In this document: positions 872 to 18,241 of the stretch, piece after piece
Layout of the letters: each line of letters begins with the position of its first letter
Position numbering within the stretch: position 1 is the stretch's first letter
Source of the DNA: a virus
Length of the DNA: 18,241 nucleotides
Virus record (IMG/VR): IMGVR_UViG_3300045988_125687
Location: 1 to 18,241 of that record
Reading direction: 5' to 3' (one strand)
Notes under the pieces: model-generated
What the model was told of the DNA's origin: nothing
What the model saw: only the letters and a program-made list of their open reading frames with translations
The model's database searches: none
Position numbers and translations under genes: made by a program

Positions 872-1291
872 ATGGCAAAGACACGCACGCTTGGCCCGGG
901 CAGTCTGAAAATCGGCGCGTCGGACAGCGAACAGGACTTCAGCGCGGACGTCATCAACACCGCTTTGGAACCATCCACCGACACCGAGGACGACGACAAC
1001 TTCTTGGACGGGCACACCGAAGGCGGTTTGCAGACCGAGACGTGGGCGCTCACCGGCAGCATCAAAGAGGACTTCAGCATGGATGGCCTCCAGGTCTGGT
1101 GTCTGAAGCACAGCGGCGAGACGCTGCCGTTCGAATGGGTGCCGAACCTTGAGGGCACCATGAAGCTCACCGGCGACGTGACGATCGCGAGCATCCAGTT
1201 CGGCGGCGACGTCAAGACCAAGAACAGCAACGATTTCAGCTTCAACGCATCCAACGTGAAAGCAGTGGCCTACCCAAACCCAAAAGCATGA
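872..1291 (+). CDS. Major tail (tube) protein
   Basis: ATG at 872 follows SD GAAAGGA (857-863); 139 aa. The N-terminal LGPGSLKIG and the later GDVTI...FGGDV pattern are typical of actinophage major tail proteins. It carries a -1 frameshift Ig-like extension, as many tail tube proteins do. Confidence 0.65.
   Translation: MAKTRTLGPGSLKIGASDSEQDFSADVINTALEPSTDTEDDDNFLDGHTEGGLQTETWALTGSIKEDFSMDGLQVWCLKHSGETLPFEWVPNLEGTMKLTGDVTIASIQFGGDVKTKNSNDFSFNASNVKAVAYPNPKA
1279..1285 (+). promoter_or_regulatory. Candidate -1 programmed frameshift heptamer C CCA AAA (major tail gene)
   Basis: Zero-frame reading is aaC CCA AAA gca TGA, a correct X XXY YYZ phase. The -1 frame is open from far upstream through 1431. 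A stem (1291-1298 ACCGTTGC with 1327-1334 GCAACGGT) starts 5 nt downstream. Confidence 0.6.
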
Positions 1292-1431
1292 CCGTTGCCC
1301 CAACATCAATCCGAATGAGGGCCGGTGCAACGGTACCAGTAAACGTGTTCCTACTGCCGGAATCGGCCGACCAGTCCGTGACCGCGACCATCCGTGACAG
1401 TGCCATCGCCGCCGCGCAGGTCACGATATGA
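1288..1431 (+). CDS. Ig-like (Big_2-like, N-terminal half) segment in the -1 frame of the major tail gene; either a frameshift extension or a coupled 47-aa ORF
   Basis: Sequence MTVAPTSIRMRAGATVPVNVFLLPESADQSVTATIRDSAIAAAQVTI resembles the first half of a bacterial Ig-like group 2 domain. ATGA overlaps occur at both ends. The ORF is too short to appear in the track. Confidence 0.55.
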   Translation: MTVAPTSIRMRAGATVPVNVFLLPESADQSVTATIRDSAIAAAQVTI

Positions 1432-5369: not shown

Positions 5370-5920
5370 CCGTAACCACCACACCCACATTCGGACTCCC
5401 CTACCCGGAAGACAACGAACCCATCGCACACCTACCCGATATCCTCCAACAGCAGGCCGAGGGCATCGAAAAAGCCCTGACACGCTTCGACTTCAACGGC
5501 ACCGACGCCAACCGGTACGCCGCACGCCTCGCCGCCATCGAAAGCATCCTTGCAGGCTACAGTCCGCTGCTCGACGCGCTCGGCACCGTCCGAATCGGCA
5601 AACCGACATACGACCCGGCGAAAATCACCCTCAACGATGCCCTGCTGGTCAGATTCAACAACCTCGTCATCGCATCAATGCGATTCGCCTACAACGCCGG
5701 CGTCATCACCCAGGAAAACGCCTCATACAGCCCGTTCACCGTGCCGCAGGGCTTCGGCAAGGCCGGCTCGACCCGCAACCGAATCAGCATCACCCACAGC
5801 CTGATAGCCCCCGGCGTCGACGACGCGTGCATCTCCGGCCACACGATAACCCAATGGTCGATAACCAATTCCACCAGCAAGTTCTCGCTGATGGGCATCT
5901 GGACCACTGACGACGAATAA
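5366..5920 (+). CDS. Minor tail / tail fibre-like protein (candidate receptor-binding)
   Basis: ATGA-coupled start at 5366 after AAGGAG; 184 aa. The N-terminal FGLPYPEDNEPIA.LPDILQQQAEGIEKAL is a motif I associate with actinophage minor tail/fibre proteins. Confidence 0.5.
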   Translation: MTVTTTPTFGLPYPEDNEPIAHLPDILQQQAEGIEKALTRFDFNGTDANRYAARLAAIESILAGYSPLLDALGTVRIGKPTYDPAKITLNDALLVRFNNLVIASMRFAYNAGVITQENASYSPFTVPQGFGKAGSTRNRISITHSLIAPGVDDACISGHTITQWSITNSTSKFSLMGIWTTDDE

Positions 5921-14509: not shown

Positions 14510-15631
14510 ATGAACAACCTGAGTCTCTGGGATCGTATGAAGCTCGCCGGGCGTATCCTGACCCGCAGTGATGCGGATGATATGCCCGAGGGCATCAGGC
14601 CGCCCAGCCGCGAGCCGGTGTGCGACCCGTTGAGCCTGTCCACCGTGTTTCGTGGAGTCCAGGTGCTGCAGACCGCGATAACCGGTCTGCCGATCCACGA
14701 GATGCGCGGCGGGTTGAAGCTCGACACCGTGAGCTCACTGATCCTCCAACCCGACGTGCACCGAAGCCGCCGCGACTTCCTCGCCGACATGGTGGCCAGC
14801 ATGGTATTGGACGGCAACGCTTTCGTTCGACTCGTGCGATACGCCGGCGAAGTCGTGACCTGCGAGGTGCTGCCGCCCTCGCTCGTGACTGTCTCGGACG
14901 ACGGCAAGGACCCAGCGGCGCCGAAGCTCCGTTACTCGTATCTCGGTGTGGACTACACGGCCGACCAGATCGTGCACTGCAAGTTTTTGAACGTGCCCGG
15001 TCGACTGCGAGGCCTCGGCCCCATCGGCGCGGCACGCGAGGAAGTCGAAAGCGCGCAGCAGGCGCGGGATTACAAGGCCCGCTTCTACACCGATTCCAGC
15101 AACCTCAAGGGCTACCTGTCCTCCGAGGACAAGGTGACGCCCGACATCGCCAGGAACGCGAAAGAGGCATGGAAGGCCACCGGAACCGCAGGCGACATCA
15201 AGGTGCTGGGCAGCAAGCTGAAATACGTGCCGCTGGACATGAAGCCGGCCGACTTGCAGTTTTTGGAAACCCAGAAGTTCGACACCACGCAGATCGCGCG
15301 ACTGTTGGGCATTCCCGCGTCCATCATGCTCGCCGCAGTCGATGGCAGCAATCTCACCTATTCGAACATCGAGCAAAGCTGGATTGAGTTCGCCGACTAC
15401 ACGCTGGCCGCCTACGCGGGCGAGATAGAGGAACTGTTCAACAGACTGCTGCCACGAGGCCGCACCGCCGCGTTCGACTGGGATTCAAGTCGCCGCGCCG
15501 ACATGAGCGACCGTTTCAACGCCTACAAGACCGCCCTCGAATCAGGATGGATGGAAATTAACGAGGTGCGCGCACGCGAGGCCCTGCCCCCGCTCATCAA
15601 CGCGCCGCAACCGGAAGAGGTGAACCAGTGA
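14510..15631 (+). CDS. Portal protein (HK97 family)
   Basis: 373 aa from ATG 14510 (MNNLSLWDRMK...). Size, position and sequence style fit HK97-type portals. The track start at 14291 would overlap TerL by 133 nt and read through the tandem repeat. Confidence 0.8.
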   Translation: MNNLSLWDRMKLAGRILTRSDADDMPEGIRPPSREPVCDPLSLSTVFRGVQVLQTAITGLPIHEMRGGLKLDTVSSLILQPDVHRSRRDFLADMVASMVLDGNAFVRLVRYAGEVVTCEVLPPSLVTVSDDGKDPAAPKLRYSYLGVDYTADQIVHCKFLNVPGRLRGLGPIGAAREEVESAQQARDYKARFYTDSSNLKGYLSSEDKVTPDIARNAKEAWKATGTAGDIKVLGSKLKYVPLDMKPADLQFLETQKFDTTQIARLLGIPASIMLAAVDGSNLTYSNIEQSWIEFADYTLAAYAGEIEELFNRLLPRGRTAAFDWDSSRRADMSDRFNAYKTALESGWMEINEVRAREALPPLINAPQPEEVNQ

Positions 15632-17214
15632 ACCGTCATGAAATCGGATTCAAAGGCATATGCCTACGCGCTGCTGAGGAAGGCGACGGCCGCACATTGG
15701 AAGGCATCGCCGTACCCTTCGGTAGCATCATCGACACCTGGAAGGGAGCCGAGACCTTCGACCCCGACTGCCGTTTCGACGACGTTGACAACGCCAAGCT
15801 CTGCTACCAGCACGGCGAACTCATCGGCCGCATCACGGGAGCGGAAAGTCGTAACGACGGTCTGCACATCACCGCCAGAATCTCGGACACGCAGCGAGGC
15901 CGCGACGTGGTGGCCCTCCTGCGAGACGGCGCTCTCGACTCCCTGTCTGTCGGCTTCATCCCAGTGCAGGACGAAACCGACAAGCAGGGTATAACCCACC
16001 GCAAGCGTGTCCGCCTGCTGGAAACAAGCGTGGTCAGCTGGCCCGCCTATGAGGCGGCGAAAATCACCGGCCAACGCAGCGCCGCCGAAACGAACACCCA
16101 GGAAATCGAAAAACACGATCCATCGAAGGAAAGCGAGGAAACCCGAATGGACAAGGAACTCATGGAGATGCTGGACGGCATCAAGGACGAACAGCGCAGC
16201 CTCAAGGCTGCATTGGCACACGCCGGAAGCCCGGACAAGCCGAAGCCGCTGGGCGCGGAATACCGTACCGCAGGCGACTACCTCCAGTCCCTCTACCGAG
16301 GTGAGGAAGCCGCCGTGAACCTGATGCACGAATGCCGTGACCTCATCGCCACCGGTGACACCGGCAACACCACCACCTGGATCGCGGACGACCTGCGACT
16401 AATTCAGATGCGCCGCAAGGTCACCAACCTGTTGACCCACGACACGCTGCCGGCCAAGGGCATGACCATGGAATACAACGTGGTGGCCACCGACACCACG
16501 ACCACCGGCAAGCAGACTGCCGAAGGTGCCGCGCTGCCGTTCGGCAAGGTCACGTTCGGTACCAAGAGCGTCGGTATCGACACCTACGGCGGCTACACCA
16601 CGCTGTCGCGTCAGGTGATCGAACGCAGCACCACGCCGATGCTGAACACGGCATTGGCCGCGCTTCGCAACAGCTACGCGAAAGCGACCGAAACCGCCGT
16701 GCGCAACTACCTGTATTCCACCATCGCCGTGCAGAGAGACGCGGAAACCGACCCCAACCGCATCGTCGCGCCCGCCGCGCTCACCGCCATGACCATCGAC
16801 CAGTGGGCGGGCCTGATCATGGACGCCGCCGAACTTGCCGACGACCGTAACGTGTCCCTCACCCGATTGGGCGTTTCCAAGGACGTCATGGCCGCGCTCA
16901 TCAAGCTCAAGGACACCGGAAGCCGATTCTTCGACCTGTCCGGCGACGGCTCGGACACCATCGGCGACTTCGACCTCACCGGCATCGCCGGCCGATTCCT
17001 CCGCGTCCCCGTCCAGCTCCTCCCAAGCGCCCCCACCGGCACGGCGTGCTTCATCGACCCCGAAGCGGTAACGGTCTGGGAAAGCGGCGGACCGACGCAG
17101 CTCAGCGACGGCGACCCCACCAAGCTCACCGAAAATTACAGCGTCTACGGCTACCTGGCCGTCGCCGCCACGCAGCCGTTGGGCCTTATCCCCGTCAAGT
17201 TCCCAAAAGCGTGA
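15628..17214 (+). CDS. Prohead protease (HK97/S78-type) fused to an HK97-fold major capsid protein
   Basis: GTGA-coupled start; 528 aa. The first ~150 aa (LEGIAVPFGSIID...LCYQHG...DSLSVGF...LLETSVVSWPAYEAAKI) match the prohead protease pattern. An acidic coiled linker follows, then a capsid-like region of about 330 aa. Confidence 0.8.
   Translation: MNRHEIGFKGICLRAAEEGDGRTLEGIAVPFGSIIDTWKGAETFDPDCRFDDVDNAKLCYQHGELIGRITGAESRNDGLHITARISDTQRGRDVVALLRDGALDSLSVGFIPVQDETDKQGITHRKRVRLLETSVVSWPAYEAAKITGQRSAAETNTQEIEKHDPSKESEETRMDKELMEMLDGIKDEQRSLKAALAHAGSPDKPKPLGAEYRTAGDYLQSLYRGEEAAVNLMHECRDLIATGDTGNTTTWIADDLRLIQMRRKVTNLLTHDTLPAKGMTMEYNVVATDTTTTGKQTAEGAALPFGKVTFGTKSVGIDTYGGYTTLSRQVIERSTTPMLNTALAALRNSYAKATETAVRNYLYSTIAVQRDAETDPNRIVAPAALTAMTIDQWAGLIMDAAELADDRNVSLTRLGVSKDVMAALIKLKDTGSRFFDLSGDGSDTIGDFDLTGIAGRFLRVPVQLLPSAPTGTACFIDPEAVTVWESGGPTQLSDGDPTKLTENYSVYGYLAVAATQPLGLIPVKFPKA
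17202..17208 (+). promoter_or_regulatory. Candidate -1 programmed frameshift heptamer C CCA AAA (capsid gene)
   Basis: Zero-frame reading is ttC CCA AAA gcg TGA. The -1 frame is open from 17046 to 17369. The context CCCAAAAGC(R)TGAC is the same as at the major tail gene. Confidence 0.6.
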
Positions 17215-17369
17215 CGCCCGTCTCGCTCGTCGCCACGCCGGCAAGCTTGATCGTTACCACGGGCGAAACCGCCAGAATCAAAGCCACAATCACGCCAGAC
17301 ACGGCATCACAGACAGTAACCGCCACCACTGCCGGCACCGACCTTATCGACATCGAGGTGAGCCAATGA
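17211..17369 (+). CDS. Ig-like (Big_2-like, N-terminal half) segment in the -1 frame of the capsid gene; either a frameshift extension or a GTGA-coupled 52-aa ORF
   Basis: Sequence TPVSLVATPASLIVTTGETARIKATITPDTASQTVTATTAGTDLIDIEVSQ is paralogous to the tail-gene extension. Confidence 0.55.
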   Translation: MTPVSLVATPASLIVTTGETARIKATITPDTASQTVTATTAGTDLIDIEVSQ

Positions 17370-18229
17370 CCACCATCAGCATCACCGGGAAACAACCGGG
17401 GAAAACCGCCGTGACGATATCCAGCACCGTCAACCCAGCGGTAAAAACCGTCGTGCCGGTCACGGTGCTCTCACGTAACCTGCTCTCCTACGGTCCAGCG
17501 TCGGGCGACGGGCTGACCGCCACCATCAACGGCGACGGCTCGCTGCACATCAAGGGCACGCCGACAAGACAGTGGACTGGCCTGTCGTGGAAGTTCCCAT
17601 GCCCAGTGCATGGCATCGTGACATTCGGCGGCACCACCATCAGTGGTTTGGGCGGCGTCATCAAATGCCTCGACGGTGACGGACGGCAGCTGGGCAGCCA
17701 GATCACCGTGGGCAGCAATGGCGTCGCAATCCCCGATGGCACCGTCAGCCTGCAACTCAACATCCTGGCCACCGAGACCACGCCCACCATGAAGGACGGC
17801 GACATCCGAATCCAACTCGAATCCGGGGACACCGTGCACGAGTGGATGAAACCGGACGACACAAGCCTTGAGGGGGGGGGCTATGAGCTAGCGAACCTTG
17901 TGCCCTCGTTCACCTCCATATTGCCCAAGACCGTGGAGGGCGTCACGTTCACCAGCACGGACGGGCACACCATCCACGCGAAGGGCACGGCGACCGCGTG
18001 GGCGCACGTCGGCGTATCCGTGCGACTGGACGCGGGCACCTACATGCTCACGTGCGACAACAGCAACGGCTGGAATTACGGATGTCAGTTCCTCGGCGGC
18101 AATAACAACGCGCAGCTGGGCGGCGCGTCCGTCAAGCTCGAAGCCGACACCTATACGGTCAGCGTGTTCGTCGCCAAAGGGAAGACCGTGGACATCGACC
18201 TGACCCCGCGCATCCACCGGCTCGACTGA
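17366..18229 (+). CDS. Surface/decoration or adhesin-like protein: Ig-like C-terminal half followed by two tandem jelly-roll/CBM-like domains
   Basis: 287 aa. The N-terminus ISITGKQPGKTAVTISSTVNPAVKTVVPVTVL resembles the second half of a Big_2 domain. An internal duplication follows (GLTATINGDGSLHIKGTPT... versus GVTFTSTDGHTIHAKGTAT...). Confidence 0.6.
   Translation: MTTISITGKQPGKTAVTISSTVNPAVKTVVPVTVLSRNLLSYGPASGDGLTATINGDGSLHIKGTPTRQWTGLSWKFPCPVHGIVTFGGTTISGLGGVIKCLDGDGRQLGSQITVGSNGVAIPDGTVSLQLNILATETTPTMKDGDIRIQLESGDTVHEWMKPDDTSLEGGGYELANLVPSFTSILPKTVEGVTFTSTDGHTIHAKGTATAWAHVGVSVRLDAGTYMLTCDNSNGWNYGCQFLGGNNNAQLGGASVKLEADTYTVSVFVAKGKTVDIDLTPRIHRLD
17872..17880 (+). repeat. G9 homopolymer inside gene 17366..18229
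   Basis: Nine consecutive G bases encode the GGG linker (LEGGGY) between the two repeated domains. Confidence 0.95.
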
Positions 18230-18241
18230 CCCTGACCCCAC
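18123..18241. repeat. Terminal overlap, identical to 1..119
   Basis: Same as the 1..119 entry. Confidence 0.95.

Follow-up and report, generated by a model that had tools for sequence, protein, structure and literature searches.

The major capsid gene of this Bifidobacterium phage very probably ends in a programmed −1 frameshift of the type found in Lactobacillus phage A2, and the extension that it would add to some capsid subunits appears to be only half of an immunoglobulin-like (Ig) Big_2 domain; the other half begins the next gene product, a separate protein with two β-sandwich domains, X1 and X2. The window, by which we mean the whole 18,241-nt stretch of DNA analysed, carries a second such site at the end of its major tail gene. 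We tentatively propose that these parts make a split-Ig plug and socket, in which frameshifted capsid and tail-tube half-Igs would be completed in trans by the separate protein, anchoring tandem binding domains whose outermost member would be governed by a poly-G tract. Taken together, frameshift, half-Ig, separate initiation, docking and poly-G switch are likely the best explanation of the arrangement as a whole.

The elements at the capsid site are the following.

15628..17214, plus strand: prohead protease–major capsid protein fusion, 528 aa (Pfam, PHROG)
17202..17208, plus strand: slippery heptamer C CCA AAA in X XXY YYZ phase (sequence, comparison)
17209..17218, plus strand: 3′ context of spacer GCG, stop TGA and then CGCC (conserved among sites)
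17208..17369, plus strand: predicted −1 extension, 53 codons (SVTP...EVSQ) plus a stop at 17367-17369; N-terminal half of Big_2

The zero-frame capsid product matched Pfam Peptidase_S78 (5e-17) and Phage_capsid_4 (4e-11); at 528 aa it is assigned to a PHROG major head protein (3e-76), and it shares ~32% identity with Microbacterium phage proteins annotated as ‘major capsid and protease fusion protein’. A frameshift in Microbacterium phages is irrelevant as a parallel, since it concerns the terminase. The 3′ end of the capsid ORF reads GTC AAG TTC CCA AAA GCG TGA, and the heptamer is, as a first-pass annotation of this DNA had stated, in X XXY YYZ phase, the CCA at 17203 being in frame with the start at 15628; the capsid stop, TGA at 17212-17214, lies one codon past it. 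Counted from CCC, the −1 frame runs for 55 codons without a stop, giving 53 residues after the slip (SVTPVSLVATP...DIEVSQ) that include the predicted peptide SVTPVSLVATPASLIVTTGETAR, and translation bears out the junction ...FPK|SVTPVS that the annotation had predicted.

The heptamer as such is not over-represented in the window, with four copies against 1.8 expected (28 of 200 shuffles reach four). For a full signature we required that the CCA be in frame with a long ORF, that a stop follow three codons on and that the −1 frame stay open over 50-55 codons. Of the four copies, those at 17202 and 1279 alone show it, with the ORF open upstream of the CCA for 547 or 170 codons, and both lie where a gene for one of the two major virion proteins ends.

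In the genome record of phage A2, the major head gene ends ACC CCA AAA GCG TAA CGCC and its −1 frame runs as SVTPDG... into a Big_2 domain; 17 nt (CCCAAAAGCGTRACGCC) are shared between this site and the capsid site of the window, and in the A2 tail gene, too, this heptamer precedes GCG and a stop codon. The annotation’s statement that a C CCA AAA lies near the end of the A2 major head gene is thereby right at the level of sequence. Both the A2 major head (gp5A/gp5B) and its major tail protein are reportedly extended by −1 frameshifts. The two phages are alike in having the heptamer with a stop one codon later on both head and tail genes, in the GCG spacer (at both A2 sites and the head site of the window), in the CGCC and PK|SVTP junction of the head sites and in a −1 frame that encodes Big_2. 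They differ in that each extension of A2 encodes a whole Big_2 domain in one frame, whereas the extensions of the window stop mid-domain and the remainder is found on another protein, which also has two β-sandwich domains; the window also differs in its protease–capsid fusion gene, carried by an 18-kb, high-GC Bifidobacterium phage.

Pfam Big_2 matched the 53-residue capsid extension over profile positions 2-44 of 79 only (E 0.004). The first-pass annotation had described a 55-residue Big_2-like sequence: the family stands, while the length after the slip is 53 residues and the match covers half a domain. Its further suggestion of a C-terminal Ig-like display module is not supported, as the stop falls mid-domain, leaving no complete Ig-like domain on the capsid polypeptide, and the second half is on a separate protein. 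We found that this extension, hereafter an N-half, aligns with intact Big_2 domains over their first half and that, when it is stitched to the start of the next product (the C-half), the two align with such domains end to end. Against P0192, an intact Big_2–X1 protein, the stitched halves gave one continuous alignment (E 6e-22) with a 1-residue gap at the junction, and a profile made from stitched sequences only matched solved Ig domains over positions 3-86, including a Hoc-like protein (1e-5) and lambda gpV (0.03). A Pfam search with the stitched 95-aa sequence returned no Big_2 match, though the N-half alone had matched; this miss is resolved by the matches obtained with P0192 and, in the profile search, with PDB structures. 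An AF2 model of the stitched halves from single sequence was of low confidence (pLDDT 52) and its Foldseek matches were meaningless. On these alignments, the capsid extension is very likely the N-terminal half of a Big_2 domain, with the other half formed by the first ~35 residues of the next product; one chain has an incomplete fold and the other has exactly the missing part.

That product is encoded immediately downstream.

17355..17361, plus strand: Shine-Dalgarno (SD) sequence GAGGTGA, 4 nt upstream of the ATG at 17366 (SD match)
17366..18229, plus strand: C-half gene, 287 aa; residues 1-35 Big_2 C-half, X1 ~36-153, X2 ~178-287

The SD core before this ATG is the same as that of the capsid gene’s own start, and SD matches of at least 5 nt precede 85% of 92 homologous C-half starts compared with 6% of control positions. 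In the relative L004 an in-phase G GGA AAC occurs here, probably as part of the purine-rich SD. A protein search returned 1523 homologs, nearly all with the same starting point, among them a Bifidobacterium longum prophage. These start sites suggest that the C-half gene is in all likelihood translated from its own SD and ATG without a second frameshift. The X-gene frame is also open upstream of the ATG, from 17072 to 18229, which we attribute to chance, as it contains stops in L002 and L004. The AF2 model of the 287-aa protein (pLDDT 75.6) comprises a β-hairpin and two β-sandwiches; no specific ligand can be named, because Foldseek matched the model to generic double jelly-roll/CBM-like folds only. 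Constraint on the C-half (dN/dS 0.2-0.3) matches that on the remainder of the protein and is stronger than on the N-halves (~0.4-0.7).

The tail gene has the same organization at its 3′ end.

872..1291, plus strand: major tail protein gene, ending AAC CCA AAA GCA TGA (phrog_4574, 1.3e-27)
1279..1285, plus strand: second C CCA AAA heptamer, in phase with the tail gene and at its 3′ end (sequence)
1285..1431, plus strand: predicted second −1 extension, 48 codons (SMTVAPTS...AAAQVTI) plus a stop; N-half Big_2

An N-half HMM matched the tail extension (E 1e-9), which has only 5 more residues between the match and its stop, and dN/dS of this extension was 0.41-0.71 against 1.2-2.0 in control frames; Big_2 homology is found attached to both major virion proteins, capsid and tail. 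The gene that follows the tail extension (1428-1844) is a Neck1/tail completion gene and not a C-half. Genomes of the window type have two N-halves, on head and tail, and one C-half protein, as does the unrelated B. longum prophage. L002, L004 and L129 keep the tail heptamer, and L001, L003 and L005 have tail genes without it; relatives that have no C-half protein also have no tail-gene heptamer site. In L003 and L005, which have no tail-gene site, X–X is fused directly to the capsid protein. Neither this twin site nor the poly-G tract described below had appeared in the first-pass annotation.

In the mechanism we propose, a fraction of ribosomes would slip back one base on the capsid C CCA AAA, the P-site tRNA-Pro re-pairing from CCA to CCC and the A-site tRNA-Lys from AAA to AAA; these ribosomes would bypass the TGA one codon on and add 53 residues, and the same slip would take place at 1279-1285 in the major tail gene. 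The next gene would be read from its own SD and ATG, giving the C-half followed by two β-sandwich (CBM-like) domains. Frameshifting would restrict the half-domains to a subset of head and tail subunits, where they would act as sockets, and the C-half ‘plug’ of the separate protein would complete the Ig fold in trans, tethering this binding protein to the virion at controlled copy number, with the poly-G tract between X1 and X2 presumably acting as an on/off switch for the outermost domain. That the C-half protein docks onto the half-Ig sockets, which we infer from sequence comparison, is plausible rather than probable.

The most serious alternative accepts the frameshift and regards the split Ig as a tolerated gene fission without reassembly: the N-half tails would be vestigial or mere spacers, and the C-half–X–X protein would act alone, attached to the virion by other contacts or unattached. 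Intact Big_2–X fusions exist (P0192, P0190), and the split is therefore derived; truncated N-halves also occur with no adjacent C-half, as in the L115 and L125 capsid genes, and the N-halves are only moderately constrained. If fission were merely tolerated, however, it would have to accommodate a split in the same loop across lineages at 75 loci, a C-half N-terminus that is kept in homologs down to 33% identity, and strong constraint on a C-half that is unable to form half a β-sandwich alone. A further 40 N-halves are in-frame C-termini of other structural proteins and are always cut at the same point. Because adjacent pairs of halves co-occur by descent from one fission, co-occurrence is informative only via the distant second N-halves; these come from few independent lineages, but they are found only in genomes with a C-half protein, and the tail heptamer is lost with them. 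We consider fission without reassembly rather unlikely on this evidence.

Separate translation of the two halves, as opposed to their fusion by further recoding, is borne out by how the split is kept among relatives. At loci with a C-half protein the N-half is terminated in 75 of 80, the other five being cut off upstream; sequencing error at the second frame break was rejected, as the break is common to L002, L004 and 75 further loci. The window halves meet at a stop/start overlap, ATGA at 17366-17369. Among relatives the frame relation at the split is −1 with the ATGA overlap (n = 17), −1 with a 12-nt gap (n = 12), +1 (n = 10) or the same frame with a 31-nt gap (n = 6). A second recoding event at 17366-17369, yielding a rare capsid–Big_2–X1–X2 fusion, would fit the single −1 shift between the window halves and the in-phase G GGA AAC one codon before the N-half stop in L004, and L003 and L005 indicate that a covalent capsid–X–X fusion is viable; yet neither the window nor L002 has a slippery heptamer at the split, the strong SD and ATG at the C-half start are conserved, and the frame relation varies, extending to halves in the same frame separated by a stop and a 31-nt gap, which argues that no second frameshift takes place. 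We rejected a second programmed frameshift as a general mechanism, and consider such an event in the window very unlikely.

The proposed capsid frameshift is marked by an invariant heptamer. Relatives L002-L005 have an identical heptamer and the extension, and L001 has neither; the heptamer is kept in relatives only where the extension follows. In an independent sample, all 37 frameshift-type N-half sites were CCCAAAA with a stop one codon later. Across sites the spacer codon is variable (GTC, GGC, GGG, GTG, GCG, GGA, ATC), while the stop position and CGCC are kept. Of 118 viral contigs with this cassette, 111 carry it in phase where a long ORF ends; at least 111 capsid genes thus terminate in it, those tested falling into three Pfam families (Phage_capsid, Phage_cap_E and Phage_capsid_4). 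The −1 frame of the capsid extension has a dN/dS of 0.38-0.54, compared with 0.64-0.97 in control frames.

That there is no frameshift, the 52-aa ORF being either made from GTG 17211 by stop-start coupling or unexpressed, is highly improbable: this GTG does overlap the capsid stop (GTGA), as ATG 1288 does at the tail site, and gene callers give the extensions as small separate ORFs, but GTG 17211 has no SD upstream (as the first-pass annotation had correctly remarked), its position is GTA in L003 with no start codon between −126 and +78, its tail-site counterpart is CTG in L002 and L004 while the heptamer is invariant, the independent sites all share the arrangement described above, and the window site is identical to that of A2. 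The first-pass reading of a programmed −1 frameshift at the capsid end is, on the strength of the A2 match and the start codon that has no SD, very probably correct.

A stimulatory RNA structure would be expected 5-9 nt downstream of the heptamer; in the window no significant 3′ structure was predicted (z −0.3), and no strong 3′ stem-loop or pseudoknot was found by folding the window and its close relatives. Across families, 35 de-duplicated 3′ flanks had a mean z of −0.85 against +0.15 for controls (p 0.001), a modest effect in a set retrieved mostly through a CGCC-containing pattern; the CGCC at +7 to +10 was paired in 70-90% of the predicted folds of these flanks. Both the CGCC and the stop one codon past the heptamer probably belong to the signal, and in these folding models the CGCC may form the 5′ side of a weak stem downstream of the heptamer, its predicted partner in the window being CGGGCG at 17260-17265.

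The last element of the proposed system lies within the C-half gene.

17872..17880, plus strand: G9 homopolymer in the X1-X2 linker, coding GGG (comparison)

Runs of 6-13 G at the X1-X2 linker are conserved in nearly all relatives, and at 27 of 61 loci X2 is not in frame with X1. Locus L129 is 99.6% identical to the window with a single gap, and has G8 and a broken frame where the window has G9; the homopolymer thus differs in length among near-identical genomes and switches the frame. Phase-variable poly-G tracts are found in Campylobacter phages and other contingency loci, and in interrupted pilus genes of Bifidobacterium breve (PMC5009743). Like these loci, the window has a long G run in a surface-protein gene, the length of which shifts the downstream frame; unlike them, the run separates two binding-type domains of a phage accessory protein.

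How does this arrangement compare with other Ig-decorated virions? Ig-like domains are reportedly appended to phage structural proteins either in frame or by frameshift. With the class of the lambda gpV C-terminal domain and T4 Hoc, the window shares a Big_2-type Ig at the C terminus of a major virion protein, and, as with Ig-appended phage proteins, the frameshift would limit the number of extended subunits. To our knowledge, the phage Ig-like cases are whole domains on one chain, whereas in the window a conserved loop marks where the fold is split over two gene products. In the donor-strand complementation of chaperone-usher pili, an incomplete Ig-type fold is completed by another polypeptide, and Ig-type domains have been split by engineering, as in SpyTag/SpyCatcher. 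Donor-strand complementation resembles our proposal in that an incomplete Ig-type fold could be completed by strands of another polypeptide, but a single strand is donated in those systems, compared with about half a sandwich here, and we offer it as an analogy and not as membership of that class; nor is any isopeptide chemistry of the SpyTag/SpyCatcher kind implied. In the literature searched, we found no prior description of the cassette, of Bifidobacterium capsid frameshifts or of strand-complemented decoration proteins.

Taken alone, the frameshift is one more, unremarkable case of the A2 type. Its 17-nt signal and linker nevertheless form a portable cassette, present in at least three capsid families and in phages of 36% to 64% GC, which gives annotators a simple rule for finding hidden frameshift products. 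The surprising part is that half an Ig would be frameshifted onto head and tail proteins, its complement being carried by a distinct protein of binding type, an attachment principle that we did not find for phage decoration proteins in the searchable literature. If the halves assemble, they would constitute a natural two-chain Ig fold that decorates a virus at controlled copy number, with possible use as a display scaffold. C-half homologs are numerous (1523) and include a B. longum prophage, and the system may therefore bear on the gut adhesion of these phages.

The window derives from a small Bifidobacterium phage with a GC content of 61%. Its first 119 nt (1-119) are identical to its last (18123-18241), which indicates that the assembly is circularly closed and represents an entire phage genome of ~18.1 kb; the nearest genomic relatives are prophages of B. 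cebidarum, B. saguini, B. vansinderenii, B. reuteri and B. callitrichidarum, with capsid identities of 83-94%. Microbacterium phages of roughly 17 kb are similar in genome size and have protease-capsid fusions resembling ORF 15628-17214. The following features recur below:

872-1291, major tail protein gene (phrog_4574, about 1e-27)
1279-1285, another in-phase C CCA AAA, where the major tail protein gene ends, followed by GCA TGA
1285-1431, second N-terminal half (N-half) of a Big_2 Ig-like domain, 48 residues in the -1 frame (HMM survey)
15628-17214, fusion of prohead protease and major capsid protein (Pfam S78 and Phage_capsid_4; PHROG)
17202-17208, slippery heptamer C CCA AAA in X XXY YYZ phase
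17872-17880, run of nine G encoding GGG in the linker between the X1 and X2 domains of ORF 17366-18229

The capsid gene ends TTC CCA AAA GCG TGA, and its -1 frame encodes 53 residues (SVTP...EVSQ) before a TGA at 17367-17369. The first-pass annotation, which had proposed a -1 frameshift here, described the site accurately in both heptamer phase and open -1 frame. Counted by itself, C CCA AAA shows no statistical excess in the window; the significance of the capsid heptamer comes from its phase, position and conservation. Four related loci (L002-L005) keep CCCAAAAGCGTRA, each with an extension, and a fifth, L001, has neither, its head-tail adaptor gene directly following the capsid gene. In a sample drawn independently of the 17-mer discussed below, all 37 of 37 frameshift-type sites consist of CCCAAAA, a variable spacer codon, a stop exactly one codon later and CGCC. 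RNA structure prediction downstream of the capsid site in the window gave nothing significant; over 35 de-duplicated flanks there was a modest excess of predicted structure, with the conserved CGCC at +7 to +10 mostly paired in the predicted folds. Read in the -1 frame, the extension evolves like a coding sequence (dN/dS 0.38-0.54 versus 0.64-0.97 in other frames). Independent initiation at GTG 17211 would require a start that has no SD, whereas genuine gene starts in the window do have one; in L003 the equivalent position is GTA, and the -1 frame there contains no start codon from -126 to +78. Frameshifting in the capsid gene is a prediction well supported by homology and comparison. In L003 (B. 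vansinderenii) a C10 run (5576-5585) directly follows the capsid stop and codes PPP in the -1 frame, so that homopolymer length sets the reading frame of the extension.

The genome record of Lactobacillus phage A2 bears out the first-pass annotation in placing this heptamer near the end of the A2 head gene: the major head gene ends ACC CCA AAA GCG TAA CGCC, with a -1 frame (SVTPDGVTL...) running through one complete Big_2 domain, and the major tail gene ends GCC CCA AAA GCG TAG, with an intact Big_2 after it in the -1 frame. According to a review, the A2 Ig-like extension arises by -1 frameshifting (PMC5009743). By sequence, the capsid site of the window corresponds to the A2 cassette. Scanning viral contigs for CCCAAAAGCGTRACGCC returned at least 118 matches; in 111 of the 118 listed, the cassette sits in phase where a long ORF terminates, and a -1 extension of 45 residues or more follows. 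These 111 form 39 classes by C-terminal sequence, on contigs of 36-64% GC. Host genes tested were Phage_capsid, Phage_cap_E and Phage_capsid_4, and in IMG/VR contigs L007-L124 the 17-nt CCCAAAAGCGTRACGCC stands at the ends of capsid genes from at least three Pfam families. Among the matches listed, the -1 modules are unrelated to each other, comprising Big_2, a second Ig-like module (..GGQTVNVSP..RY.IT..) and a small helical one (..TAWLDAHGIDHTGKT..), and the junction ...PKA* / SVTP... is constant whichever extension follows, indicating that signal and extension move together as a portable module.

The first-pass annotation had envisaged an Ig-like display module on the capsid C-terminus; by sequence, the extension is instead half a domain. 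It covers only positions 2-44 of 79 in Pfam Big_2, and the rest lies in ORF 17366-18229, which overlaps the N-half stop as ATGA, starts MTTISITGKQPGKTAVTISSTVNPAVKTVVPVTVLS and aligns to the C-terminal half (C-half) of intact Big_2 domains. Stitched together, the halves align continuously (E 6e-22, 1-residue gap at the junction) to P0192, a homolog in which an intact Big_2 runs in frame into the same domain downstream, and a profile of the stitched halves only matches solved Ig domains over positions 3-86, including a Hoc-like protein (1e-5) and lambda major tail protein V (0.03). The 287-aa C-half protein has 1523 homologs, almost all with an identical start point and one in B. longum, and its N-terminus is retained in representatives as low as 33% identity. 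An assembly error is ruled out by the same split in L002 and L004.

The C-half gene has its own SD, GAGGTGA, 4 nt 5' of ATG 17366, with the same core as at the capsid gene's start; of 92 homologous starts whose start codon was identified, 85% show an SD match of 5 nt or longer, versus 6% at control positions. The relation between N-half stop and C-half start varies: 17 loci are in -1 and overlap as ATGA, 12 are in -1 but separated by 12 nt, 10 are in +1 and overlap by 8 nt, and 6 keep one frame across a 31-nt gap. The strong SD and this varying frame relation indicate that the C-half protein is produced on its own; together with the ATG they argue against a second frameshift as the general means of joining the halves. 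In the B. reuteri prophage L004, a canonical slippery heptamer, G GGA AAC (~5720-5730), occurs in phase one codon before the N-half stop; it probably serves only as a purine-rich SD for the gene that follows. In the window the X-gene frame has no stop for 385 codons (17072-18229), back across the heptamer region; L002 and L004 have stops in that frame, so its openness is not conserved and is probably due to chance.

In structural terms the tail N-half ends just where the capsid extension does, and the gene after it is Neck1/tail completion, not a C-half. Its dN/dS is 0.41-0.71, versus 1.2-2.0 in control frames. The site is common to L002, L004 and L129, and the junction codon in L002 and L004 is CTG, which leaves that position with no start codon. 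L001, L003 and L005 have neither tail heptamer nor N-half; in L003 and L005, X-X is joined directly to the capsid protein via the frameshift, without Big_2 sequence. Between Neck1 and the tape measure gene, 1844-2374 presumably holds the tail assembly chaperone genes with their usual frameshift.

Split domains recur elsewhere. An unrelated B. longum prophage (L125, with the viral contigs L115 and L019) follows the same pattern: its capsid and tail tube genes both end in CCCAAAA with an N-half in the shifted frame, and there is one C-half-X-X gene in the genome. A terminated N-half accompanies the C-half protein in 75 of 80 further loci, the sequence in the other 5 being cut off just upstream of the gene. 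Forty further N-halves form the C-termini of larger proteins without any change of frame, all ending at the same loop. At locus L128 (1206-3280), a multi-Ig protein of 233 aa carries one in-frame N-half at its C-terminus, and two separate C-half proteins follow it, of 152 aa (one X domain, with its own G9 run near its start) and 286 aa (two).

In the AF2 model of the 287-aa protein (pLDDT 75.6), residues 12-34 form a beta-hairpin and a disordered linker joins two beta-sandwich domains, X1 and X2. Its fold matches are generic jelly-roll or CBM-like (tandem collagen-binding domain, Cry1Aa, bicupins), one relative has a weak CBM_4_9 match, and X domains of relatives lie downstream of collagen repeats or other Ig-like modules; a role in binding is plausible. 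Nearly all relatives carry a run of 6-13 G, and among the 61 loci in which X1 and X2 were both found, 27 have X2 out of frame. L129 is 99.6% identical to the window, and the one gap between them leaves G8 and breaks the frame. Many cluster representatives start or end at the poly-G point, and PHROGs divides the protein into two families at ~residue 185, just past it. The run behaves like a phase-variable or slippage-prone switch.

For the conserved split, the main alternative to assembly in trans is a functionless fission of the Big_2 domain. Half-Ig tails on two different virion proteins, a single constrained C-half protein and the loss of the tail-gene site wherever the C-half is absent together suggest assembly in trans, which explains the conserved split most simply; it is a tentative reading that we rate somewhat short of an even chance. 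The single C-half protein would supply the other half of the domain, and the assembly would tether a binding protein to the frameshift-made subunits.
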